Source: a virus (taxonomy: Duplodnaviria > Caudoviricetes). Taken from it: DNA of 64,000 bases. How positions within the stretch are numbered: the first letter of the stretch is position 1; every line of letters starts with the position of its first letter. Shown here in pieces: positions 3,834 through 63,112 of the stretch. The stretch lies in the IMG/VR virus record IMGVR_UViG_3300033498_000048, positions 64,001-128,000 of that record, one strand, 5' to 3'. Position numbers and translations under genes: made by a program. The notes beneath the pieces were generated by a model. The model had not been told where the DNA came from. It did no database searches and was given only the letters and a program-made list of their open reading frames with translations.

Positions 3834-3863
3834 ATTATAATGCGTTATATATTCCAATGTCAA
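3834..3863 (-). promoter_or_regulatory. sigma70-like early promoter
   Basis: TTGACA-N18-TATAAT on minus strand. Confidence 0.65.
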
Positions 3864-3871
3864 CTAATAAT

Positions 3872-4385
3872 TTCAATGAGTTAGCACTTATAGGTGTTGG
3901 GTAATTAGTAACCTGTTCCAAATGCTAACCTATTGATATTGTTAGTGTATATTATTATCAATTAAATCAATAAGTTAGCACTTATAGGTGTTGGGTAATT
4001 AGTAACCTGTTCCAAATGCTAACCTATTGATATTGTTAGTGTATATTATTATCAATTAAATCAATAAGTTAGCACTTACAGTTTGGTATTAGTTAGTTAA
4101 TGGTTGCAAGTGCTAACTCATTGATTTGTAGTAATTGACAATGATGACACATGGACACGATATATTGATAACCAAGAATCAATGAGTTAGCACTTGGAAC
4201 AGGTTACTAATTAACCAACACATACAAATGCTATGTCATTGATATTTAACACCTAACTAATTGGCTAACAGAATCAATGACATAGCATTTGCAGCTATTA
4301 TATAATTAACTAACACCTCTAAGTGCTAAGTCATTGATAGTTGGTGCTATTGATTGTTTAGTTGAAAATCAAAGGGTTAGCATTT
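3872..4385. repeat. 66-bp dyad element cluster A (5 complete units + 1 half site)
   Basis: Left arms end at 3889, 3983, 4077, 4195, 4290 (half site 4385); each complete unit has a 30-nt core with central TAATTA/TAGTTA followed by the inverse arm. Confidence 0.95.
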
Positions 4386-4706
4386 GGAGCATAAACCGAT
4401 TGCATTAATAATTTCGCCCCATGAAACAGCTCTGTTTATTCCCAAATCGTAACCATAATCTTCAGTTTCTTGATTATAGTCTGTAGATATAACGTAACGG
4501 GTTGAATCGTCATCGTGTAACATTCCAAGGTCAACTGTAACTGGAGTTAAACTACCATCATTATCAATGTAGTACGAATCGCAGTAAACTTCAAATGTTC
4601 CAAGTTTGGTGAAATTAAAAACCCTAGAAAATTTACAGTCTGCATAATAATTGGGTGCAAGTGGTATTTGATGCAATATTGTTGTTCCAACTTGTTTTGT
4701 TTTCAT
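4377..4706 (-). CDS. hypothetical protein between element clusters A and B
   Basis: 109-aa ORF with its own promoter; stop codon lies in a repeat arm. Confidence 0.65.
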   Translation of the reverse strand: MKTKQVGTTILHQIPLAPNYYADCKFSRVFNFTKLGTFEVYCDSYYIDNDGSLTPVTVDLGMLHDDDSTRYVISTDYNQETEDYGYDLGINRAVSWGEIINAIGLCSKC

Positions 4707-4737
4707 GTTAGAAACCCCTGTTAGTTAATGAAGACGC

Positions 4738-4767
4738 ATTATAATACAACCTACAGATTAACGTCAA
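4738..4767 (-). promoter_or_regulatory. sigma70-like early promoter
   Basis: TTGACG-N18-TATAAT. Confidence 0.6.
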
Positions 4768-4794
4768 TGCGTTAGGAATTTAATAATTCGTTCC

Positions 4795-5177
4795 GATTGC
4801 TAACCTATTGATTTAATTGAGAATTATATACTAATATTATCAATAGGTTAGCACTTGTAACCATCTTATAATTAACTAACTGCTGCAAGTGCTATCTTAT
4901 TGATAACTAAGCACAAACTTATGTGGCATAAGAATCAATGATGATATGTGGAACAATTTGTGTCCATCAAGTTAGCACTTCCCAGTTTGTGTTAATAATT
5001 GACATGAATACACTCAACCAACTATCAATGAGTTAGCACTTACAACTGGTTACTAATTACCTAACTGCTTAAAGTGCTAACGCATTGATTTGTATAGTGC
5101 ATATTTTTACATATAATTATCAACAAGATAGCACTTGGAACAGTGTTATTAATTACCTAATGGCTGCAAGTGCTAAC
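4795..5177. repeat. 66-bp dyad element cluster B (3 units + 2 half sites)
   Basis: Units 4839-4904, 5024-5089, 5119-5177 (31-nt core); half sites near 4795-4812 and 4965-4980. Confidence 0.93.
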
Positions 5178-5179
5178 GC

Positions 5180-5187
5180 TATAAATA
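5180..5187 (+). promoter_or_regulatory. T4-type late promoter
   Basis: TATAAATA 28 nt upstream of the structural gene ATG; the same octamer precedes the 12089 and 23165 genes. Confidence 0.7.
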
Positions 5188-52167: not shown

Positions 52168-52563
52168 TTAAATATGGACTCCATTAACATGGTCAACTTC
52201 GTGTTGTGCTATAAATGATGCTAGTCCAGATAACTTATACATTACTGGTTCAAAGTCGGTATTAACTCCTTGTAATGTGACTCGATAGTGCCGTTGCTTT
52301 TTAACTGCTTTGTTTGGAAATGATAAACAACCTTCTTTGCTAGTCTTTTTTTCAAGACTCTTAGCTGTAATTACTGGATTAACTATCGTTACAAACTCAC
52401 CATTAATTTTAACGATAATGATACTTTTAGTTATTCCAATTTGAACTGCTGCAATTCCAACACCATTACCTATATTGTTCAATAATTCCAACTCAATTTG
52501 TTTAACATCGTCATATTCAGTCAACATTTCAGATGGAACGTTAATATAATCATTTGTAAACAT
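52168..52563 (-). CDS. def: peptide deformylase
   Basis: GVGIAAVQIG, EGCLSFP, QHEVDH motifs. Confidence 0.95.
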   Translation of the reverse strand: MFTNDYINVPSEMLTEYDDVKQIELELLNNIGNGVGIAAVQIGITKSIIIVKINGEFVTIVNPVITAKSLEKKTSKEGCLSFPNKAVKKQRHYRVTLQGVNTDFEPVMYKLSGLASFIAQHEVDHVNGVHI

Positions 52564-52592: not shown

Positions 52593-52621
52593 ATTATATA
52601 GGCTTAATGATTCAATGTCAA
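52593..52621 (-). promoter_or_regulatory. sigma70-like early promoter
   Basis: Perfect TTGACA-N17-TATAAT abutting element cluster D. Confidence 0.75.
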
Positions 52622-52883
52622 ACAACAAGTTAGCACTTGCAACAATTAGGTAATTAACACTGTCCAAGTGCTAACTCGTTGGTTTAATTGATGATAGTTG
52701 GCTCATAATTAAATCAATAGGTTAGCACTTACATGGGAGTGCTAATTATATAACCGTTCTAAGTGCTAACCTATTGATTTAATTGAGAATGATTGAGAAT
52801 GATTATAGCCTAACAATATCAATGAGTTAGCACTTACAGGTTAGTATTAGTTATATAACTGTTCCAAGTGCTAACCTATTGAT
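52621..52883. repeat. 66-bp dyad element cluster D (3 units)
   Basis: Cores 52639-52665 (27 nt), 52731-52760, 52836-52865; middle unit has perfect 20-bp arms. Confidence 0.95.
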
Positions 52884-52982
52884 GTATAATAATTGACAAG
52901 AATGATAGTAGTGGAACAGTTGTTTTTGTGTGTTAGTCTTCTATTTGTTCCATTTTTAGTTTATTCAACCCATTAGTTTATT

Positions 52983-53372
52983 TTAACTGGAAGTCAACTT
53001 GACAAAAACAGAATCATATTCTTCTTTAAACATCGCAATTTTGTTTTTGATTAGAGTTATATCGTATTCCAATGATGTTATGTGCCTTGCCCTTAACTCT
53101 AGGTAATATAGCTTACATTCTTTTTCATCTGTAAACAAATTTAACTCAGCTCCACTTGTATTACCAAATAACTTTATTTCTTTTTTCGTTACATCTCCCT
53201 TTGAATTGATTACACGAAAACGACCATTATCTCCAACTTGCACGTTTGTTGGAATAACATTTCGTTGTGGATTCTCATTTCCAGTATATGTAAAGTAATA
53301 TGCACATACCCACAAACTCATACCACAAAATTCTTTACCAGTATAAGCATATTCATTAAACTCTAATTTCAT
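52983..53372 (-). CDS. hypothetical protein
   Basis: ORF between clusters D and E. Confidence 0.6.
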   Translation of the reverse strand: MKLEFNEYAYTGKEFCGMSLWVCAYYFTYTGNENPQRNVIPTNVQVGDNGRFRVINSKGDVTKKEIKLFGNTSGAELNLFTDEKECKLYYLELRARHITSLEYDITLIKNKIAMFKEEYDSVFVKLTSS

Positions 53373-53776
53373 TTAATATTCCCTGTGTATCCTAGTAATC
53401 CAAAGTCTAGGATTGTACTTAATAACAAATCACATTCACTATTGGACAACTTAATATAATGTGTTTTAAACTTTCTTGCAATTGCAACAACTTCTTTGTA
53501 TCGGGTTATCATATTTCTTTCAAGTTTTTTAAATTCGATTATATCGGAATATAAACCTGGATTAGGTTTATTATCCTTGTGTACCATGCAATATTTCATT
53601 ATCAATTTATTAACTGAAAATTTGGTAATTTCCATAGCTTTAGTTATATGCTTTGAATTAACCAACTTTACATCTAAGCAATTAGTGTAATTAGTCGATA
53701 AGCGATGTTTTAACTGTTGATACAACTTTAACCTATCAGCTAATGGCATATCAAGTAATTCATATTTTTTGTTCAT
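53369..53776 (-). CDS. hypothetical protein
   Basis: ORF with GGAG RBS and promoter. Confidence 0.6.
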   Translation of the reverse strand: MNKKYELLDMPLADRLKLYQQLKHRLSTNYTNCLDVKLVNSKHITKAMEITKFSVNKLIMKYCMVHKDNKPNPGLYSDIIEFKKLERNMITRYKEVVAIARKFKTHYIKLSNSECDLLLSTILDFGLLGYTGNIK

Positions 53777-53804
53777 TATTTAACTCCAATGTTTTTGTTG
53801 GCGA

Positions 53805-53833
53805 ATTATATTCAGTATTCCAAACAATGTCAA
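53805..53833 (-). promoter_or_regulatory. sigma70-like early promoter
   Basis: Perfect TTGACA-N17-TATAAT. Confidence 0.75.
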
Positions 53834-53855
53834 CGCAATATCGTTCAAACTATAA

Positions 53856-54141
53856 ATCAATGACTTAGCACTTGGAACAGTTATATAATTAAGACCAATC
53901 TGCAAATGCTAACTTGTTGATTCTAATAACATTCATCTAAACTCAATTAAATCAACAAGTTAGCATTTGGAACGGTTATATAATTAAGACCACGCTGTAA
54001 GTGCTAAGTCATTGATTCTTTATAATTGACAATGATTGATAGTGTATAGAATACATATTAACAGGTAAATACAAAATCAATAACTTAGCACTTGGAACTA
54101 TTAGGTAATTATAAGACCTGTCTAAGTGCTAAGTCATTGAT
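53856..54141. repeat. 66-bp dyad element cluster E (3 units)
   Basis: Cores 53874-53903, 53969-53998, 54094-54123, all 12+TAATTA+12. Confidence 0.95.
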
Positions 54142-54155
54142 TTTTGAATAGTGAT

Positions 54156-54485
54156 TCATCTAATATTTTCGTACCAGAATTTAACTCTAGGAGGTTCATC
54201 GAAACACCAAACAGATATTATTTCAGGCATATAGCAATATTCAGACTCAGCTTTACGCATAGTTTTTCCAGACTTTCTTGCTGTGTCAATTATCAATATT
54301 GGACTCAATTCTTTTGGTATTTGTGTTCCATACGGAATAAATGGAACACCTAATAAATATGATGAATATACAGCAGCTATAGCACCACTACGACCTGGAC
54401 CAGTAACACTATTAACTTTCTTTATATTAGACAACTTAGCCTTTAAAACCGTTTGAAATTCAACCTCTGTCACAATTCTACTCAT
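54156..54485 (-). CDS. phosphoribosyltransferase-fold protein
   Basis: GPGRSGAI...LGVP; ILIIDTARKSGKTM (PRPP-loop like). Confidence 0.6.
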   Translation of the reverse strand: MSRIVTEVEFQTVLKAKLSNIKKVNSVTGPGRSGAIAAVYSSYLLGVPFIPYGTQIPKELSPILIIDTARKSGKTMRKAESEYCYMPEIISVWCFDEPPRVKFWYENIR

Positions 54486-54501
54486 ATTTTAGCTTATCCT
54501 T

Positions 54502-54646
54502 AAAATCAATAGGTTAGCACTTGCAACGGTTATATAATTACTAACACGATGCAAGTGCTAACCTATTGATTTTTGTGTGTTAATAATTGACAACGATAAT
54601 AGATGGAACATCCATCTTAACTGGTACATAATTATTAACACATTGG
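54502..54646. repeat. dyad element F (perfect 21-bp arms) plus armless core
   Basis: AAAATCAATAGGTTAGCACTT-N30-AAGTGCTAACCTATTGATTTT (54502-54573); core remnant AACTGGTACATAATTATTAACAC centred 94 bp downstream. Confidence 0.92.
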
Positions 54647-54654
54647 GTTATAGT

Positions 54655-54942
54655 TCATAAGATAATTTGGTATTTCTTTATTTCCTCTCGATAATATTTA
54701 CACATTATCATACCAACATTTGGGTAATGTTCACTTTCAATGATACTCGTATCTAATGCTTGTTGGCAAAATACTATTTCACGTTTAGCTAACTCCAAAG
54801 CATATTCTAAATTTATGTCAGCTAATTTTAGTATAAGTTCGTCCGTGTTTTTAATGTTCCCAAGCTCTGGGTCTACAACTTTAAATGAACATTGTCCATT
54901 AGATGCTTGTTGGAAGTGGAAGTTCCAATCATTTGCGTTCAT
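54655..54942 (-). CDS. hypothetical protein, paralog A (MNANDWN...)
   Basis: Start reassigned to 54942 by homology with 55202-55513 and promoter position. Confidence 0.7.
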   Translation of the reverse strand: MNANDWNFHFQQASNGQCSFKVVDPELGNIKNTDELILKLADINLEYALELAKREIVFCQQALDTSIIESEHYPNVGMIMCKYYREEIKKYQIIL

Positions 54943-54970
54943 ACATACCTCGGTGATAATTAAAAGTGGT

Positions 54971-54999
54971 AATATACATAATATTTCAGCTATTGTCAA
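54971..54999 (-). promoter_or_regulatory. sigma70-like promoter (duplicated at 55544-55572)
   Basis: TTGACA-N17-TATATT. Confidence 0.6.
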
Positions 55000-55006
55000 A
55001 TATACA

Positions 55007-55176
55007 AATCAATGAGTTAGCATTTGCAGTGTGTTAATAATTATATAACTTCTGTAAATGCTAACTCATTGATTGTTAGTAGTTGACAATGGTAGTTCCA
55101 TGTACATCCACTTTAACGGGTTACACATGGAACTATTAGGTAATTAATAACACTATGCAAGTGCTAACCTGTTGTT
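55007..55176. repeat. dyad element cluster G (1 full + 1 lacking left arm)
   Basis: 55007-55074 perfect 19-bp arms; core 55129-55158 + right arm. Confidence 0.92.
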
Positions 55177-55201
55177 TTGCTTATAATTGTATATTGACTG
55201 A

Positions 55202-55513
55202 TTATAGTCTAACTCGCACAATAAACACCCTTTTGAATTTTTGTATTTCACTAGAATAATATTCACACATTATTCTACTAATATATGGGAAGGGGTCTGT
55301 TTTCATTTCTTCCTCATAATAAGATAACCATTTTTCACAAAATACTATTTCACGTTTAGCTAACTCCAAAGCATATTTTAAATTTATTTCAGCCATCTTT
55401 AGTATAAGTTCATCTGTATTTTTAATATTACCGATTTCTGGTTGAATAACTTTAAATGTACATTGTCCATTAGATGCTTTTTGAAAATTATAGTTCCAAT
55501 CATTTGCGTTCAT
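55202..55513 (-). CDS. hypothetical protein, paralog B (MNANDWN...)
   Basis: 49/59 N-terminal residues identical to paralog A (hand count). Confidence 0.7.
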   Translation of the reverse strand: MNANDWNYNFQKASNGQCTFKVIQPEIGNIKNTDELILKMAEINLKYALELAKREIVFCEKWLSYYEEEMKTDPFPYISRIMCEYYSSEIQKFKRVFIVRVRL

Positions 55514-55543
55514 ATTATAAATCCGTTAGTGATTAAAAGTGAC

Positions 55544-55572
55544 AATATACATAATATTGCATCTATTGTCAA
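55544..55572 (-). promoter_or_regulatory. sigma70-like promoter
   Basis: TTGACA-N17-TATATT. Confidence 0.6.
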
Positions 55573-55581
55573 CTACTATAA

Positions 55582-55840
55582 ATCAATACCTTAGCACTTG
55601 TACTGGTCTTATAATTACCTAATACACCCAAGTGCCAACTTATTGATTCTTAACAATCGGATACATGGAACGTTCAAATGCTAACCTAATGGTTCTTAAT
55701 GTTTATGTTATACAAATCAACAGGTTGGCATTTACAACTGGTACATAATTATAAGACCAGTACAAGTGCTAAGGTGTTGATAACTGACAATGGTAGTTTC
55801 CATGTTCCATTCAAAATATAACTCAATAACTTAGCACATG
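55582..55840. repeat. dyad element cluster H (2 units + 2 half sites)
   Basis: Cores 55600-55629 and 55734-55763; half sites near 55676 and 55823-55839. Confidence 0.92.
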
Positions 55841-55910
55841 GAACAGATACACAATTAACTACATTATGCTGTTGATTTATGGTTGGACTGTAATTTAGCC
55901 ATTCCCAAAT

Positions 55911-55918
55911 ACTAAATA
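55911..55918 (+). promoter_or_regulatory. variant T4-type late promoter
   Basis: ACTAAATA 34 nt upstream of ATG 55952. Confidence 0.45.
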
Positions 55919-55951
55919 TCATATACTTTAATTAACGTGGAGATAACACAA

Positions 55952-56767
55952 ATGTTGACATTTAATGATTTTAAAAATTCAACTCAAAGTCAAGATATAA
56001 TTTATAACGAAAACTACTGTGATTACTTAGATGCAATATCATTAATAGAATCATATTATTCAAATCAATTATCTGAAAATATTATCACGGAATTGCCTGA
56101 TAAATTGAAAGATAAATTTGATTTCATTAAATCTATTGCTGATGTGGCAAAGATGGACATTTCAGAACTAATATCTATAATTAAGTTTCCTAGTGTATTT
56201 GAGTTTTTTGATTCGATTAAATTTAACTTAGCTAAGTTTTATAATATATTAAAACAAGGCTATAAATCGTATATTGAATTGGAACATGAAGTTTCTAAGT
56301 TTGCAGCTAATCAAAAAATAATGAAGTGGACCACTGCAAACTTAGAACTATTAGATGATTATTTGATGAATAACAAAGCACTCCACAGAATTACTGGAGT
56401 GGCAGCATCTGGAATCTTATTGTTTATGTGGATGCACCAATCACACACTGGTAACATAGACCACGACTTTAATGCTGATGATATTGTCAATGCTATGAAG
56501 GGGGAATATGAATTAGCAGATTTATTTGGAGGACATGAGGGTGCGAAACGATTGATGTTATTTGCTGTTGGTATCACCGTCCATGTTACATTCCCTTGGC
56601 CCACACCTAGCGATGTAAGCCTTATCATTGGACTAATACGAAATTTGAGAAAAACTATGAAGGTTAGAATCGAAAATGAAAAGGCTAACGAACCACCTAA
56701 ATTAATACCACGACCACATAAGGGAACTACCAGTAAAAAAAGAACTACCGAATCTTTTATGTGGTGA
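55952..56767 (+). CDS. putative late/virion or membrane protein
   Basis: GGAG RBS before MLTFNDFK start (track uses GTG 55937); two short hydrophobic segments. Confidence 0.6.
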   Translation: MLTFNDFKNSTQSQDIIYNENYCDYLDAISLIESYYSNQLSENIITELPDKLKDKFDFIKSIADVAKMDISELISIIKFPSVFEFFDSIKFNLAKFYNILKQGYKSYIELEHEVSKFAANQKIMKWTTANLELLDDYLMNNKALHRITGVAASGILLFMWMHQSHTGNIDHDFNADDIVNAMKGEYELADLFGGHEGAKRLMLFAVGITVHVTFPWPTPSDVSLIIGLIRNLRKTMKVRIENEKANEPPKLIPRPHKGTTSKKRTTESFMW

Positions 56768-56775
56768 TTCCAAAA

Positions 56776-56839
56776 ATCAATAAGTTAGCACTTGCTGGTT
56801 TGTATTAATTATAACACTGTCCAAGTGCTAACCTGTTGA
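56776..56839. repeat. single dyad element I between convergent genes
   Basis: ATCAATAAGTTAGCACTT-N29-AAGTGCTAACCTGTTGA. Confidence 0.9.
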
Positions 56840-56847
56840 ATTACTGA

Positions 56848-57201
56848 TTAGTTTAGTCCAGACGCATACAGTTCAGCAGCTTCTATAAATCCAAGCTCAA
56901 ATTGTATTAATTTTTTAGCCCACAATGGTGCATTCCATGCTGATAAGATGAAGTTTAATATAATGCTATCTATGTGTTTATGGGTAGGTTTTTCTCCAAA
57001 TTGTGTTGGTAAATAATAATCACCCATCATATCCATTGCTAACGCTTTACCAATTTCCTTACTGTACCTATCTTTTTTATTTGAAAAACTATAACCAAAT
57101 CTAATCACATATCTACCTTTTTTATTGGACGTTAATTCAGACGCTATTGTAATAACATTAGTGTGGATTAATCCAGTATTGCCGATGTATTTAAATCTCA
57201 T
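56848..57201 (-). CDS. conserved phage hypothetical protein
   Basis: GYSFSNKKDRYSKEIGKALA motif. Confidence 0.6.
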   Translation of the reverse strand: MRFKYIGNTGLIHTNVITIASELTSNKKGRYVIRFGYSFSNKKDRYSKEIGKALAMDMMGDYYLPTQFGEKPTHKHIDSIILNFILSAWNAPLWAKKLIQFELGFIEAAELYASGLN

Positions 57202-57288
57202 GCTGTTTACTCAATTATTAAAAACTATATTGTACACAAGGACAGTTCAATAAGATGTTGACTGTAGAACTGTCCTTAAACAACCAAT

Positions 57289-57648
57289 TTACGATTTCAC
57301 TCGAACATTCATACAAGTTATACTTCCAGACTCGGAAAATATATTTTTACCAACATCACCTTTAACCTCAACTGAACCTGTAACAGTTGCAACATCACCT
57401 CCAACCGAACCAGTAACGACAACATTACCTGATTGAGTTCTAATAGTTTCAAGTGTTGGACTTGTGACATTGATTGTAATTGATGTGTTAGGTTTAAAGG
57501 CAGTGTGGATTTTACCATCAACTAAAACCTCATTATCTGTTACAAACACACGATTACCGTTAGTGACATTTACAATAGTGCTATTGTCTCCAAAATTAAT
57601 ACTTCCACCTGTTACATTACCTATAAAAGTTTGTTTCCGTTCTGACAT
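57289..57648 (-). CDS. beta-helix/DUF4097-like small protein
   Basis: SGNVVVTGSVGGDVATVTGSVEVKGDVG repeats. Confidence 0.6.
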   Translation of the reverse strand: MSERKQTFIGNVTGGSINFGDNSTIVNVTNGNRVFVTDNEVLVDGKIHTAFKPNTSITINVTSPTLETIRTQSGNVVVTGSVGGDVATVTGSVEVKGDVGKNIFSESGSITCMNVRVKS

Positions 57649-57677
57649 ATATTACCTACATTAAATTAATTAAATTA

Positions 57678-57729
57678 ATAAGTTAGCACTTGAACGATTT
57701 GATAAAAATAATCTGTCACAAGTGCTAAT
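57678..57729. repeat. degenerate dyad element J
   Basis: ATAAGTTAGCACTT-N28-AAGTGCTAAT; core diverged. Confidence 0.75.
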
Positions 57730-57732
57730 AAA

Positions 57733-59016
57733 TCACCTCTTAGCATCATATTCTGGATTAATGAACTTACATGATAAGTTATTTGTTTCCATCGTTCTAA
57801 CCACAATTCCTTCGATTATTTCACCATTTTTCTTGTGTTCATCAAACATCAACTGGACAGTATTACACAAGTCTTCATAACTATGTGGGGTAATTACCGT
57901 TGTTGGAACAACTGGTAGATTTAAGTCTTTAGCAACATTCCACAAATCGTAACCATTCAAACGAATAGCATTGGGACCAGATACATCATCCAAACCAAAC
58001 AATATCAATCCTTGTTCTTTTTTAGAATGTGGATTGTGTTTGTTTCCAGAACCTTTCAATCCCTTACCATAAATCTCAGCTCTAAATGCCAATTCCAAAT
58101 CATTATCTAAACAGTATTGATACCCCTTATCTAATAACCCAGATGATTTTGAAATATCAACCCATGAGTCCTTATAAGCTATTTCAATTGGAGTTAAATC
58201 ACTAACATTATCATTGGTTCTAAAATCTCCAGTTTCTTCGCACAACCATCCCCTAGTATTGTCAGCAAAATGCTTTCTATAGGGTTTAAACTCATTATCA
58301 ACATAATGGGAAACAACTGTGGGGTTTAATTTTTTCAAAAACATTCTGGAACACACAAAAGGCTTCAATTCACCGTTGATTTTTTTGAATGCAACTGTTA
58401 AAGATGAACCATCCACTTTCAAAGACAACCCCAATGGCTCTCCACGCTCAATAACCATTTTTATGTGATTGACGATGTTTTGATACATAATTTCATCTGT
58501 TTTGTACATCCAATATGGAAAATCACCTTGAATTAATCCATTAGATTGTGTTGAAGGTTCAGGCTCTTCATACTTCACAATTTCCAAGGCTTCAGTCAAG
58601 TTACAATCACCAATATTAATTCCCTTATTAATTAAATATGATTCAACTAATTGGAAAGATAATAAGATTCCAAAAGACCAAATCGGTTGAATATCATCCT
58701 CAAATGAAAATGTAAATTTAGACGATTTAATCCTATTGTTCGTTCCTAATCTAGTTCGTTTTGGTTCACCACCTGGAGCTATAAATTCACTAAATAACTC
58801 TGTGTTAGGAACACAATAATCTGGTTGAATGAAAATTGCCTTATCTCCAATTTCATATAATCCGATTTGTGCAATTAGATTAAATCCACAAGTTTCACCT
58901 GTTCGGTCAAATGTGAATCTAACAACTTCAATGTTAGTAGCTGCTTCGCCGTTTTTTTGAATTTTTAAATTTTGATTAATTGTAACCAGTTCTACTGGAT
59001 TAACTTCATTTGTCAT
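57733..59016 (-). CDS. RNA ligase (Rnl2/DRB0094-like) with N-terminal OB-like domain
   Basis: FIQPD, SLKVDGSS (motif I), RAEIYGKG, IEGIVVR, KFINPEY. Confidence 0.85.
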   Translation of the reverse strand: MTNEVNPVELVTINQNLKIQKNGEAATNIEVVRFTFDRTGETCGFNLIAQIGLYEIGDKAIFIQPDYCVPNTELFSEFIAPGGEPKRTRLGTNNRIKSSKFTFSFEDDIQPIWSFGILLSFQLVESYLINKGINIGDCNLTEALEIVKYEEPEPSTQSNGLIQGDFPYWMYKTDEIMYQNIVNHIKMVIERGEPLGLSLKVDGSSLTVAFKKINGELKPFVCSRMFLKKLNPTVVSHYVDNEFKPYRKHFADNTRGWLCEETGDFRTNDNVSDLTPIEIAYKDSWVDISKSSGLLDKGYQYCLDNDLELAFRAEIYGKGLKGSGNKHNPHSKKEQGLILFGLDDVSGPNAIRLNGYDLWNVAKDLNLPVVPTTVITPHSYEDLCNTVQLMFDEHKKNGEIIEGIVVRTMETNNLSCKFINPEYDAKR

Positions 59017-59019
59017 ATT

Positions 59020-59349
59020 TTATTCCTTAATGTGGTTTTGATACCAATCTTTATATTTTGTATATTGTGCTGTTGCATCTGAAAAATTGTAAATGTTACC
59101 TCCAATTTTAATATACTCAGCAAACTGGTAAATATTCATTTTTTCAACTGTTGGAAAAAATAATACTACTAATTTATTATCACGAATAAATACTCCAGAA
59201 ATATAATCTTTATTCACATTCAACAAGTCTTGTAATATACTTTCTTTTGAATCATATCTTCCAGTTCCTACATATGTCGTGAAATATTCATAACTACAGG
59301 GGGTTAGCATTGTGATTGTTCCTTTTAAATTTAGTGTTTTTATGTCCAA
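59020..59349 (-). CDS. hypothetical protein
   Basis: ORF track. Confidence 0.55.
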   Translation of the reverse strand: MDIKTLNLKGTITMLTPCSYEYFTTYVGTGRYDSKESILQDLLNVNKDYISGVFIRDNKLVVLFFPTVEKMNIYQFAEYIKIGGNIYNFSDATAQYTKYKDWYQNHIKE

Positions 59350-59639
59350 CTAATCTCAAATGAGTTAATATCAAGCTCTTGTCCATAGGTTGGGGTATAT
59401 GATATTTTAAAATTTGAGCATATTAAAAATCTAGCGATATGCGTTTGCTGTTCACTAGAAATTTGAGCATCGAAGCGTAATGTCATACAAATTTCACCAC
59501 GCGAAGCACTTTCCGTAAATAACAATATAAGATATTCGATATATTTTTTGCTCTCATCTGTTAATAAGTTTAATAAAGCTTCCATTGATATTTTTTTAAT
59601 ATCGTTGGCATTTAATGTACTAAATTGTTGTACTACCAT
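59340..59639 (-). CDS. hypothetical protein
   Basis: ORF track. Confidence 0.55.
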   Translation of the reverse strand: MVVQQFSTLNANDIKKISMEALLNLLTDESKKYIEYLILLFTESASRGEICMTLRFDAQISSEQQTHIARFLICSNFKISYTPTYGQELDINSFEISWT

Positions 59640-59869
59640 ATTATTTTATTCCTTAATTTATATTGGGTAGAATTTAACGCATTAATAAACCCACCATCTT
59701 TAAATTTGAGTTTAGTGTTTATAAACCTTTCCAAGTCTTTTTTTGTCCAGTATTTACAATACACAAACCAGCCTAAATTGATTTTTTGATAAATGATTTT
59801 GTTAGTTTGGTCGACTTTATATTCTCCACTATCATTAATCTCGTTAATTAATTCTTTAATGTTACTCAT
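59633..59869 (-). CDS. hypothetical protein
   Basis: ORF track. Confidence 0.5.
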   Translation of the reverse strand: MSNIKELINEINDSGEYKVDQTNKIIYQKINLGWFVYCKYWTKKDLERFINTKLKFKDGGFINALNSTQYKLRNKIIW

Positions 59870-60185
59870 TGTTTTTCATCCAATAGTTTAACAAATCATC
59901 ACATACAACCCAAACTTCATCTCCATACATATTCACAATGAAAGACTCAACAGTATCACCATCTTCTTTCAAACCTAACTTAATGAGATTGTTGTGGAGC
60001 TTTACCACACAATATTCACCAAGACCCATAGCCTTTAGTAAACCATGTTGTTTACTTCTTTCAAATGCTTCTTGTAATTCCCTAGGTAGTGTATAAAGTG
60101 GACCCAATACAGACTCGCACTTATTAATAACGGTTTTGTTTGTTGGTTTAAACTCAACTCCAACTAACTCAGTTTGTTCTGTCAT
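59862..60185 (-). CDS. hypothetical protein
   Basis: ORF track. Confidence 0.55.
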   Translation of the reverse strand: MTEQTELVGVEFKPTNKTVINKCESVLGPLYTLPRELQEAFERSKQHGLLKAMGLGEYCVVKLHNNLIKLGLKEDGDTVESFIVNMYGDEVWVVCDDLLNYWMKNNE

Positions 60186-60304
60186 ATCTTAATTCCCCCT
60201 AACTACTCTTTGGATACCACACTTGGAACATCGTTCATAGTGGAAATTATCGGTGTATGGTCCATCGTACACCCATGAGTGTAATCCAATTCTACACATA
60301 ATCC

Positions 60305-60616
60305 TTACTCCGATATTGAAGCTGATAAGTTCCCAAAAACATCTTGGTCTATTACCAACCAAAACGATTCATCATCATCGTGACAAAAACGTATATACCA
60401 TGCACTTGTTCCATCTGCATCATTCTCATAGCCAACATAGTTCCAATGTGAATGCTCTATGCCGTTGATTGCAGATGTTATCGACTCTATTAAGAACTTC
60501 TTATCATCGACATAATCACCTTTATTAAAAGTCACTTCTGCATTTACATCATATGATAATGCTACGTTCAATATACTATCAATGATTTCGGTTATATTAT
60601 ACATTATTGTACCCAC
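60305..60616 (-). CDS. acidic hypothetical protein
   Basis: ORF track. Confidence 0.55.
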   Translation of the reverse strand: MGTIMYNITEIIDSILNVALSYDVNAEVTFNKGDYVDDKKFLIESITSAINGIEHSHWNYVGYENDADGTSAWYIRFCHDDDESFWLVIDQDVFGNLSASISE

Positions 60617-60885
60617 ACATATTCAATTGCACTATGAACCATATAAACACATGGTTTACCATCATATTTACTGGAATAAAACCTAACATGATAATCGTTT
60701 TTTACTGTTGGACAAGTACCAAACTCAACTAAGTCTGATGTGTCGATATGACGAATAAATGTATTATATTTGATTTCCCGACCACGTCCTGTCATTTCAG
60801 TGATTAATCTACCTGAAAGATTGACACAACTTCCAATAAGACTTTTTTTCATTTTTAATGCCTTGTGGTTAAAATAAAAACACAT
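60604..60885 (-). CDS. conserved phage hypothetical protein
   Basis: DYHVRFYSSKYDGKPCVYMVHSAIEYVW motif. Confidence 0.65.
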   Translation of the reverse strand: MCFYFNHKALKMKKSLIGSCVNLSGRLITEMTGRGREIKYNTFIRHIDTSDLVEFGTCPTVKNDYHVRFYSSKYDGKPCVYMVHSAIEYVWVQ

Positions 60886-60963
60886 AATAATCCTATTCTA
60901 ATCCAATGTCAATTTATTTTTGTAACAATGGAGTCTATGTGTCTAGTGGGATTTCAGACAACT

Positions 60964-61809
60964 TTATCCAACAAATGTTGTTTTAGCATTGACTTGTTTT
61001 TTATCTGTTATTGTTACAATAACATCATCGGTGATAGTAAATTTAACTTCAGAATATGAAATGTATTTTCCAGTGTCCATCATAATATGGGAACATTTAT
61101 CAGTATGTCCTATTAGATGAGTTCCATCCCAAGTATATGGATTACCATGTAAATCATTAAATGTACCAATATTTGGTTCTAATGTTTTAAGGTATGCTTT
61201 TTTACCAACTACATTCAAGTTATTGTACATATCAGAAAAACCTTTGTTTTCCACCATTTGAGTGAATAGTGTTGGGAATTTATGACTAATTTGTAATATT
61301 AAAATTGGCAATAACTCTGAGTATTCCCGATACGACCACGGGCTTGAAAAGTCTGATTGGGTTAAGGTACAAATAAGGAGTAGATTAATTGATGTGAAAT
61401 CATTAACACCAATCATATTAGATTTAAAACAAGTCGGGATTTTAGAACCAACTTCGTCAAGGTTTAGTTTTCTGTTATATGGGAAATAAACATAATCTCC
61501 AATTCGATACAATTGAGTATCAGCTTTAGTTAAAGCGTTTAATACTGGTTTGTACATATCGGACATTTTGTTTATCCATGTATAGAAACCTTTTGCTTTT
61601 GATGTAAATCCTAGTTCTGTGTTTGTTTGTCCGTATGGACATACTGAATCATTTAATTGAATACATTGCCCTAACGCATAAACCTCGCAGTTTGAACAAT
61701 TTGAACACTTTGCTATATAACACGTTGATTTTGCTGTTTTTGATACTCCAAACGACATTTTCATTAAGTTTTTTGTTGGATTATCAACATATGCGTGTAT
61801 TAATTTCAT
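60964..61809 (-). CDS. hypothetical protein with Cys cluster
   Basis: CSNCSNCEVY..GQC...CPYG. Confidence 0.65.
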   Translation of the reverse strand: MKLIHAYVDNPTKNLMKMSFGVSKTAKSTCYIAKCSNCSNCEVYALGQCIQLNDSVCPYGQTNTELGFTSKAKGFYTWINKMSDMYKPVLNALTKADTQLYRIGDYVYFPYNRKLNLDEVGSKIPTCFKSNMIGVNDFTSINLLLICTLTQSDFSSPWSYREYSELLPILILQISHKFPTLFTQMVENKGFSDMYNNLNVVGKKAYLKTLEPNIGTFNDLHGNPYTWDGTHLIGHTDKCSHIMMDTGKYISYSEVKFTITDDVIVTITDKKQVNAKTTFVG

Positions 61810-61891
61810 TTTTAAGTATTTCCTACTGGCTATTTAAGTTCTACAACTTCGTGTTTATTTCCACAGTGTGGACACCATAAGTGCGATGGTA

Positions 61892-62161
61892 TCAATTTAG
61901 GGTCGCCAATTGAAAACCATAACTTACAATCATCACACACAAAATGATATAGTGGTTCAAATGAATACCTTGGGTTGTATTGTTTTCGTTGTTCCACACT
62001 TTACGCTCGCGCTCTCTAAAAGTGTTGCAAATACTATCTGCTTTTGAATAATGAACTAATAGGGCTTTACCCAATTTATAAGATATAACATTAACAAAGC
62101 CAGTTTCTGGTGTTTTTGAATCTGGTAATATGTGAGCTGCATTTTCAAGATTATCTATCAT
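61892..62161 (-). CDS. hypothetical protein
   Basis: ORF track. Confidence 0.45.
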   Translation of the reverse strand: MIDNLENAAHILPDSKTPETGFVNVISYKLGKALLVHYSKADSICNTFRERERKVWNNENNTTQGIHLNHYIILCVMIVSYGFQLATLN

Positions 62162-62164
62162 ATT

Positions 62165-62434
62165 TTAATTCCCTTGTATCCGAGATGCTTTGTGTGCAAT
62201 ATCAACAGAAACCACTAATGCCATATATGCTGAATCACTTTTATTATTCAAATAACTTCTCAATGAATCAGATACATGGTTATCAATTAAAGCAAACATT
62301 TCAGCTTGTTCTAATAACAACAACCGTTTGTGATTAACTTTTTTTAAATGCTCTTTCACATCAGCATTAACACTAAGAGTTTCGATAAAAACGTCTGGAA
62401 TAACAATTCCTTCATACTTGTTGTGTGTTGTCAT
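62165..62434 (-). CDS. hypothetical protein
   Basis: ORF track. Confidence 0.55.
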   Translation of the reverse strand: MTTHNKYEGIVIPDVFIETLSVNADVKEHLKKVNHKRLLLLEQAEMFALIDNHVSDSLRSYLNNKSDSAYMALVVSVDIAHKASRIQGN

Positions 62435-62505
62435 ATTAGCCTACTTTGATGTGATTATTTAATATTTGCAATTATACTCAATTGATTATTTAAGTCAACA
62501 CTTGA

Positions 62506-62862
62506 TTAGATGAAGATTTGTAATGACATGGGAGTTGAAGTATCTCGTTTAGATGATATAAATGCGAGAGCTTCACCCTTTGAATAAAACTCAATACCTT
62601 CTCCAGACTTACAACCAACATATGACACTCCCCACTCAGGACAGCCAGATTTCACCCACCCTATCCTAGGGACAACACTCCACATTTTAGTTGGAATTGT
62701 AGCGTGAATGTCTCCATTCTTGAGAATGAAGTGTGTAACCCCTTTGATTGATACGAAGCCTAGAACACTCCAAGCTAAGTCTTGGAACTCAACTGCTGAT
62801 ATGGTTGGAAGCTGATTAAATATCTTAAGAGTCAGTTTAATTGTTTTGATAGTTACTTGCAT
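62506..62862 (-). CDS. hypothetical protein
   Basis: ORF with GGAG RBS and promoter. Confidence 0.6.
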   Translation of the reverse strand: MQVTIKTIKLTLKIFNQLPTISAVEFQDLAWSVLGFVSIKGVTHFILKNGDIHATIPTKMWSVVPRIGWVKSGCPEWGVSYVGCKSGEGIEFYSKGEALAFISSKRDTSTPMSLQIFI

Positions 62863-62895
62863 AGTATGTTATTACTCCATTCTGATAATTTGAGT

Positions 62896-62924
62896 ATCAT
62901 ACACACTAATAGTATTGGAGTCAA
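62896..62924 (-). promoter_or_regulatory. sigma70-like early promoter
   Basis: TTGACT-N17-TATGAT. Confidence 0.6.
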
Positions 62925-62953
62925 TATTTATCTTTCACTGTCAATTATGAAGA

Positions 62954-63112
62954 ATCAATGAGTTAGCACTTGCATCGTGTTAGTAATTATATAACCGTTC
63001 CAAGTGCTATCTTATTGATTTAATTGAGTATAAATGTATTAGTAATATCAATGAGTTAGCATTTATAACGGTTATATAATTACTAACACGATGCAAGTGC
63101 TAACTCATTGAT
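62954..63112. repeat. dyad element cluster K (2 units in inverted orientation)
   Basis: Cores 62972-63001 and 63065-63094; 46-bp perfect inverted repeat 62954-62999/63067-63112. Confidence 0.95.

Follow-up and report, generated by a model that had tools for sequence, protein, structure and literature searches.

A PeSL-like array of small early genes on a conserved, probably protein-bound palindrome in an uncultured jumbo phage

Introduction

Work on PeSL elements in a few coliphages and vibriophages provides the only known mechanism for the gain and loss, in large phages, of small early genes through which these adapt to their hosts. PeSL and PmSL cassettes are found in T4-type phages, and in RB49 eight PeSLs lie within about 5 kb (Arbiol 2010, PMC2839356; Comeau 2014, PMC4122927). 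Mini-circles form between PeSLs (PMC2839356; PMC4122927), and degraded PeSLs were described near indels (PMC4122927). Here we analysed a window of 64,000 nt, which comprises bases 64001–128000 of a 305,782-bp virus record (IMG/VR, IMGVR_UViG_3300033498_000048). Between positions 52621 and 57728 of this window, small genes alternate with copies of a 66-bp palindrome, in the following called the element. An initial annotation had described this region as seven element loci separating one- or two-gene modules over 5 kb, and had proposed an integron-like or PeSL-like platform on which genes are gained, duplicated or inverted through the flanking elements. All positions refer to the window unless they are given as genome positions.

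REP/BIME sequences are chromosomal repeats of enterobacteria; in IHF-binding BIME-1 (RIP/RIB) two REPs in alternating orientation flank one IHF site. REP elements and the RNase III sites of T7 are RNA-level hairpins that act on transcripts, and the Correia (CREE/NEMIS) elements of Neisseria show TA target duplications. For the CIRCE operator of HrcA the consensus is TTAGCACTC-N9-GAGTGCTAA (quoted in PMC7464140). From its sequence, we describe the array studied here as a hyperplastic early region of PeSL-like type, whose palindrome is unusual and probably bound by protein, and not as an integron.

Results

The palindromic element and its distribution

The element has the consensus ATCAAT-N3-TTAGCACTTR-N28-YAAGTGCTAA-N3-ATTGAT, with TAATTA at the centre of its 66 bp. 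Its half-site TTAGCACTTG (at most one mismatch) occurred 61 times in the window, compared to 4.1 ± 2.0 times in shuffled sequences. Genome-wide, 100 paired half-sites were present and none in shuffles; the spacer was exactly 28 nt in 85 of the 100 pairs, and 95 copies were intergenic. The copies are distributed across the genome and occupy 40 of its 473 intergenic gaps. Since these gaps are clustered, internal modules of no more than two genes are in excess, with 16 observed versus an average of 6.3 and at most 14 over 5000 permutations. The cassette-like layout exceeds chance. Six of the 16 small modules follow each other in 52621–57728, which is the densest such run in the genome; comparable runs are located at about 10–15, 35–41 and 281–284 kb of the genome. 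In 52621–57728, eleven full copies are distributed over seven loci, and no fewer than four others are decayed or halved; the loci and the one- or two-gene modules of the initial annotation were recovered.

Within arrays the period is 93–96 nt, and adjacent copies are mostly arranged head-to-tail (19 versus 8). By our own arithmetic, an array repeat of about 95 bp corresponds to about nine helical turns at 10.5 bp per turn. The best-matching partner was more than 20 kb distant for 63 of 85 copies. In one case adjacent units (3881–4022 and 3975–4116) differ at only 2 positions, including the 28-nt linker. Judged by this identity, the 3881/3975 pair is the one clearly recent tandem unit duplication of the genome, and illustrates how arrays grow.

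Elements and transcription units of the array

The seven loci are named D to J from left to right, and genes and promoters are on the minus strand unless stated otherwise. The left anchor is a peptide deformylase gene (52168–52563). The promoter of its unit (52593–52621; TTGACA-17-TATAAT, 12/12) is 9 nt from D1, the first of three copies at locus D (52621–52883; cores 52621–52683, 52713–52778 and 52818–52883, starts 52630, 52722 and 52827). Module 1 (52983–53776) consists of two overlapping open reading frames (ORFs) without family match, of 135 aa (53369–53776) and 129 aa (52983–53372), and its promoter (53805–53833; TTGACA-17-TATAAT, 12/12) is 32 nt from E1. Locus E (53856–54141) again has three copies, spaced by 95 and 125 nt (cores 53856–53921, 53951–54016 and 54076–54141; starts 53865, 53960 and 54085). 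It is followed by module 2 (54156–54485), a gene without promoter for a 109-aa protein with a phosphoribosyltransferase (PRTase)-like fold. Locus F, with one copy (54505–54570, start 54514), ends 17 nt from the ATG of this gene; as RNA it is predicted to form a 24-bp stem of −42.6 kcal/mol.

Module 3 is ORF A (95 aa, 54655–54942), with a promoter at 54971–54999 (TTGACA-17-TATATT, 11/12) that is 18 nt from locus G. Locus G (55008–55185) comprises a full copy (55008–55073, start 55017) and a decayed copy at about 55110–55185. Module 4 is ORF B (103 aa, 55202–55513), a paralogue of ORF A (61% aa identity), and its promoter (55544–55572; TTGACA-17-TATATT, 11/12) is 19 nt from locus H. In locus H (55582–55880) a full copy (55582–55647, start 55591) is followed by a half copy and two decayed copies at about 55660–55700, 55716–55781 and 55822–55880. 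A 57-aa ORF (55749–55922) was considered as a gene; it overlies the decayed elements and is probably spurious. Module 5 is a 271-aa gene on the plus strand (55952–56767), probably late, with ACTAAATA at 55911–55918. The single copy of locus I (56776–56840, start 56785) separates two convergent genes, with 8 nt to the stop codon on either side. Module 6 (56848–57648), without sigma-70 promoter, encodes proteins of 117 aa (56848–57201) and 119 aa (57289–57648). Locus J (57671–57728, start 57683) is an atypical copy without the central TAATTA and without the right outer box, 5 nt past the stop codon of the RNA ligase gene (57733–59016), the right anchor. The module list of the initial annotation could be kept as given, except that ORF A starts with the ATG at 54942 and not with the TTG at 54999, and that the centres of D1, I and J are 25, 27 and 26 nt long. 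When the source run, from a microbial-mat sample, was assembled independently at k=31, the result showed 0 differences to the record over 52854–53884, 53869–54554, 54777–55377 and 55348–62968. The gene order across G, H, I and J is therefore no assembly artefact.

Four near-perfect sigma-70 promoters (11–12/12) lie on the gene strand, 9–32 nt downstream of an element, one each for the deformylase unit, the 135+129-aa module, ORF A and ORF B. Both the gene for the 109-aa protein and the 119+117-aa module are promoterless; here the element ends 17–35 nt before the start codons, with F and J directly before the ribosome-binding site. At the other end, an element or a decayed copy is found 5–15 nt past the stop codons of the 109-, 117- and 271-aa ORFs, of ORF B and of the RNA ligase gene, and the nearest full copy is 82–109 nt away for the 129-aa ORF and ORF A. 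Only about 14 of the roughly 50 strong sigma-70-type promoters of the genome are within 115 nt of an element, and most element flanks have no promoter. Consequently, the element is a boundary mark rather than a component of early promoters.

A second module is bracketed in the same way, as the initial annotation had noted. In 3872–5185, five copies on the left (3881–4329) and several on the right (4848–5176) enclose a 109-aa ORF (4377–4706, minus strand) with an 11/12 promoter at 4738–4767. Over its last 97 nt, this ORF shares 88% identity with the 3′ part of a 172-aa ORF (genome 51462–51980) that is otherwise different. By this comparison, the homology stops at the stop codon beside the element array, which is the pattern of a mosaic junction. 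The ORFs 4377–4706 and 54156–54485 were considered as paralogues, and comparison showed that they are not.

DNA site or RNA structure

At the variable positions of the arms, purines on the left and pyrimidines on the right vary independently, with no positive left-right association (Fisher p > 0.1). Pairing is therefore not kept by compensatory change. An initial impression that the N3 triplets covary was wrong on testing. Arm combinations of the G-T and A-C type were equally common on either transcribed strand. The halves of the 28-nt core were strongly anti-correlated (p down to 2e-13): each unit couples one half of the GAACnGTTATA type with a different half. The core is thus polar and non-pairing. 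Since the core contains TATAAT, it was considered as a −10 box; it points away from the gene at F, and core orientation is independent of gene direction.

The blocks ATCAA, TTAGCACTT and TAATTA are conserved; we calculate centre-to-centre distances of about 10.5 and 19.5 bp between them. The IHF consensus WATCAANNNNTTR, as used in PMC8942017, fits 144 of 200 arms (72%), and the genome has 221 matches versus 54 in shuffles. The lack of covariation, the asymmetric core, the conserved blocks, the phased arrays and the fit to the IHF consensus together point to a DNA-level protein site rather than a folded RNA. No homologue of HU/IHF, HrcA or MotA was found in the phage genome, and with no MotA homologue the arm was discarded as a candidate MotA box. 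AsiA also gave no match in the phage genome; the AsiA control matched nowhere, so this blank is uninformative.

As RNA, the elements have predicted stems of 20–24 bp with −15 to −43 kcal/mol and z-scores of −4.4 to −10.4. There was no U-tract at the element, terminator-like sites occurred at chance rate, and no Rfam family matched the element. If transcribed, the element would likely also influence RNA ends, as a side effect or in a second role.

Evidence on gene flux

The tandem duplication of ORF A and ORF B provides the most direct view of recombination at this locus. Element, promoter, leader and the first ~190 coding bases of the two units are about 88% identical, and the similarity then decays. 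Recombination between elements is plausible on this comparison and visible once, while as a general mechanism it is not demonstrated. Half and decayed elements are present at the 3′ flanks of modules and are similar in this to the degraded PeSLs near indels. Paralogues were about three times more common for genes in small modules than elsewhere (7/22 versus 54/452, p = 0.015).

A European Nucleotide Archive (ENA) contig from sample ERZ28612979 was the only informative relative carrying both anchors, and it was compared by its proteins and gene positions. It encodes the RNA ligase (69% aa identity), five small genes with gaps of 43–199 nt and a DUF7788 gene (64% aa identity), all within 5.4 kb. 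The RNA ligase and DUF7788 anchors are 2.3 kb apart in the contig versus 84 kb in the genome studied here, where each adjoins an element array. Rearrangements were also checked at the contig level, in Logan contigs of sequencing runs. The candidate joints in these data were all due to cross-mapping of other arrays; for example, one of them holds the linker of the array at 179.7 kb. The freshwater runs X2 and X3, one data set filed twice, contain a relative of about 90–97% nt identity in contigs of less than 600 nt that cover some modules and not others.

Several findings weigh against frequent exchange of modules by way of the elements. The copies have diverged, the median distance to the best partner being 7 differences, and element pairs in the region share only 12–24 nt of exact identity at about 76% overall. 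Such short identity makes them poor substrates for homologous recombination. Paralogues other than A/B are old (27–43% aa identity), module genes have the same GC content as the remaining genome and in this show no sign of foreign origin, and the single informative relative is distant. Duplication through the elements, as the initial annotation had proposed, is supported by one case, A/B, in which the unit consists of element, promoter and gene; the short identity and the age of the other paralogues count against it.

Inversion through the flanking elements had been proposed as well, and is not needed. The 271-aa gene has a 35%-identical paralogue at genome 184897–185601; both proteins begin with MLTF, and in both cases a palindrome copy lies 5–8 nt past the stop codon. 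In this paralogue, the ATG is preceded at 24 nt by a TATAAATA late promoter. Genome-wide, 23 TATAAATA late-promoter boxes are intergenic, 2 of them heading structural blocks on the plus strand, where the late genes of the phage are located. Because its paralogue has the TATAAATA box and the late genes lie on the plus strand, the 271-aa gene looks late. A late gene amid early genes is probably the simplest account of the strand flip.

Module proteins, phage and relatives

Seven of the eight module proteins have no Pfam or PHROG family. The 109-aa protein of 54156–54485 was undetected by Pfam. Its Atlas model (pTM 0.82) matched, with a TM-score of 0.81, a viral cluster in which 56% of the members carry PF00156. 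The protein has a minimal PRTase-like fold and appears to come from a family of very small PRTase-like phage proteins. The 119-aa protein had no homologue in a word search of a database of 5.8 billion proteins and matched only phrog_3163 (function unknown); it has short repeats rich in glycine, asparagine and valine that by eye look beta-helix-like. For the 135-aa protein nothing was found in Pfam, PHROGs or Atlas, and a helix-turn-helix-like stretch seen by eye was unsupported.

The record has direct terminal repeats and was judged complete, with a GC content of 31% and 87% coding sequence. It encodes T4-type functions, namely an RnlA-type RNA ligase (phrog_562), baseplate-wedge-like proteins, a UvsX-like recombinase (match to phrog_97, E = 2.8e-80) and a clamp loader; by this gene content its source is an uncultured T4-like jumbo phage. 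In the UvsX-like recombinase (493 aa, genome 164627–166108) the PHROG match falls into two stretches with an insert between them, and the match of the clamp loader (464 aa, genome 172712–174106) is likewise split by an insert. The two proteins are linked by BLASTP and both match phrog_18112. They may contain a related inserted domain, perhaps an intein or endonuclease.

No match to the region was found by megablast among GenBank phages, and tblastn yielded only distant phages with less than 41% identity. IMG/VR was also scanned with the RNA ligase and the neighbouring 333-aa protein as seeds, and no relative was found. Three contigs carrying an RNA ligase of 47–49% identity were not syntenic and had no elements, and the contig of a 65%-identical DUF7788 relative showed no elements in 5.6 kb. 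At positions 3850–4660 of the latter contig, several tRNA-like T-arm motifs (GGTTCGATTCC) lie in large intergenic gaps, in parallel to a tRNA cluster near the orthologous gene of the phage studied here.

A scan of IMG/VR for the element pattern found none, and the half-site combined with the IHF box gave single chance matches only. The pattern had 15 matches in JGI metagenome contigs and 8 in GTDB genomes, all of them single unrelated hairpins without ATCAAT and TAATTA. GC-rich soil metagenome and Acidobacteria contigs contain an unrelated inverted repeat, with words of the TTAGCACTT / TTGGCAT type around a spacer of ~28 nt. Judged by its sequence, this repeat seems to be a separate family of Acidobacteriota-type genomes.

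Discussion

We tentatively consider the stretch a hyperplastic early-gene region, in which PeSL-like units are bounded by a genome-wide protein-docking palindrome that also allows occasional crossover, and rate the chance of this reading at slightly less than even. Small genes, mostly without known relatives, form units of one or two genes; every unit ends, on its 3′ side, in one to three full copies together with decayed ones, and usually begins with such copies on its 5′ side. The element would mainly be a docking site at the DNA level, each arm offering an IHF box WATCAANNNNTTR beside the invariant TTAGCACTT, and such a site would set the limits of early transcription units or insulate them. 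Transcribed copies would also give the upstream message a very stable hairpin at its 3′ end. UvsX-type recombination could occasionally cross over between copies, so that whole units are duplicated, deleted or exchanged. Such crossover would be possible because the same palindromic sequence recurs, in both orientations, at every unit boundary; at the level of gene units it is directly visible only for the A/B tandem duplication. Apart from the limited homology of the copies and the age of most paralogues, this reading has to accommodate the promoterless modules, the small share of strong promoters that lie near an element, the many element flanks without promoter and the absence of HU/IHF, HrcA and MotA matches in the phage genome.

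The element could instead be purely regulatory punctuation, in the form of operator or roadblock arrays for early shut-off or of upstream architectural sites, without any role in gene flux; the cassette look would then result from short early genes with their own promoters. This is rather unlikely and has perhaps a quarter of the weight. Arms conserved in blocks without covariation and the ~95-nt phasing agree with it, as do diverged copies with short exact identity, mostly old paralogues and GC content that is not foreign. It does not explain why the A/B duplication unit includes the element, why decayed half-elements are present, why paralogues are enriched in small modules, why the synteny of the relative breaks at two arrays, or why the 119-aa module gene has no orthologue in the database. 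Action as RNA is less probable again, and we regard it as unlikely. Long hairpins would terminate, attenuate or stabilise polycistronic early transcripts or direct their cutting by RNase III, and the stable 20–24-bp stems, the elements 5–15 nt past stop codons, the position of F and J before ribosome-binding sites and that of I between convergent genes would suit such a role. What argues against it is the combination of arms without covariation, the missing strand-specific G-U preference, anti-correlated core halves and TTAGCACTT and ATCAA blocks that are invariant beyond the needs of pairing. U-tracts, an excess of terminator-like sites and an Rfam match are all lacking, and RNA processing does not call for three to five copies in a row with a constant period of 95 nt.

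Two further explanations concern the origin of the repeats. A MITE- or REP-like mobile repeat may have invaded intergenic DNA and left the genes between its copies as bystanders, a view to which the imperfect palindrome, the ~100 dispersed intergenic copies with a usually distant closest copy and the near-identical tandem pair 3881/3975 lend something. We consider it very unlikely, as target-site duplications (direct flanking repeats) occur at chance rate, the genome has no Y1 (RAYT/IS200) transposase (Y1_Tnp) and no tyrosine or serine recombinase, there are no near-identical copies besides the one tandem pair, and scans of GTDB genomes, JGI metagenome contigs and other IMG/VR contigs gave no copies. 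Hardly credible is an integron-like platform that exchanges promoterless cassettes site-specifically at attC-like palindromes. The size of the palindrome (66 bp) is attC-like, and in two promoterless modules the element abuts the ribosome-binding site. Yet the complete genome gave no match to the tyrosine recombinase family PF00589, which matched in 14 of 14 control genomes, and none to the serine recombinase family PF00239. There is thus no integrase, a promoter accompanies four of the seven modules, not all modules lie on one strand, as one of them faces the other way, and tandem arrays occur at ~40 loci genome-wide rather than as a single array beside an integrase. Of the two parts of the initial proposal, the PeSL-like one is retained, in view of the T4-like phage, the element-promoter layout at four boundaries, the A/B unit, the decayed halves, the seven module proteins without family and the break of synteny in the relative; the integron-like one is dropped for want of a recombinase and because of the modules' own promoters.

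Returning to the docking palindrome with occasional crossover, a more far-reaching version of it is conceivable, though on balance improbable. The palindrome might be a new phage boundary element that recruits either an architectural or regulatory host protein, IHF-like or (at the CIRCE-like half-sites) HrcA-like, or a phage protein. Phased nucleoprotein arrays would then insulate early units and also serve as preferred crossover points for excision as circles, duplication and exchange between co-infecting phages, which would amount to a protein-guided form of PeSL shuffling. If binding and recombination were shown, insulation of transcription units and gene shuffling would be joined in one element, and hyperplastic regions of uncultured jumbo phages could be sought by way of this element. 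At present the array is a good descriptive example with an unproven mechanism.

Among other known palindromes, the element resembles integron attC sites in that imperfect palindromes of similar size lie between single genes and some cassettes are promoterless. It differs by the missing integrase, by most units having their own promoter and by elements that are both dispersed and tandem; in a comparison by eye only, no R/L box pattern was seen in the element consensus. With REP/BIME-1 it shares imperfect extragenic palindromes at the 3′ ends of genes, arrays with conserved linkers, an IHF consensus and a possible stabilisation of upstream mRNA. In contrast to BIME-1, the element is found in a phage, two inverted IHF-type boxes flank the core, copies are head-to-tail, and there is no RAYT transposase. 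Correia elements and the RNase III sites in T7 early mRNA resemble the element as inverted repeats between genes, in an IHF site, in promoter boxes that face outwards and in transcript hairpins, whereas the present element has no TA target duplications, no covariation and a conservation far above the needs of RNase III. The inner arms TTAGCACTT ... AAGTGCTAA match CIRCE at 8 of 9 positions per half-site and in the same inverted orientation. Their spacing differs, being 30 nt in 81 of 98 pairs and never 9; no copy with N9 is present in the genome, and the phage has no HrcA. We treat this likeness as a lead only.

PeSLs remain the closest described system. In both cases a T4-like phage carries dense clusters among small genes without known relatives, and four boundaries of the present array follow the order of stem-loop, TTGACA-N17-TATAAT promoter, Shine-Dalgarno sequence and start codon. 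Decayed half copies and recombination between copies as the proposed mechanism are common to both as well. The PeSL stem is a short GC-rich one of terminator type, whereas here its place is taken by a 66-bp palindrome that is rigid, fixed in sequence and asymmetric in its core, and that often forms phased tandem arrays of 95-nt period. A promoter is present at only about one third of the element loci, and most strong promoters have no element. In this phage the cassette architecture agrees with that of PeSLs, on an element that differs greatly from theirs: it is rigid, far more conserved, probably protein-bound and present in about 100 copies.

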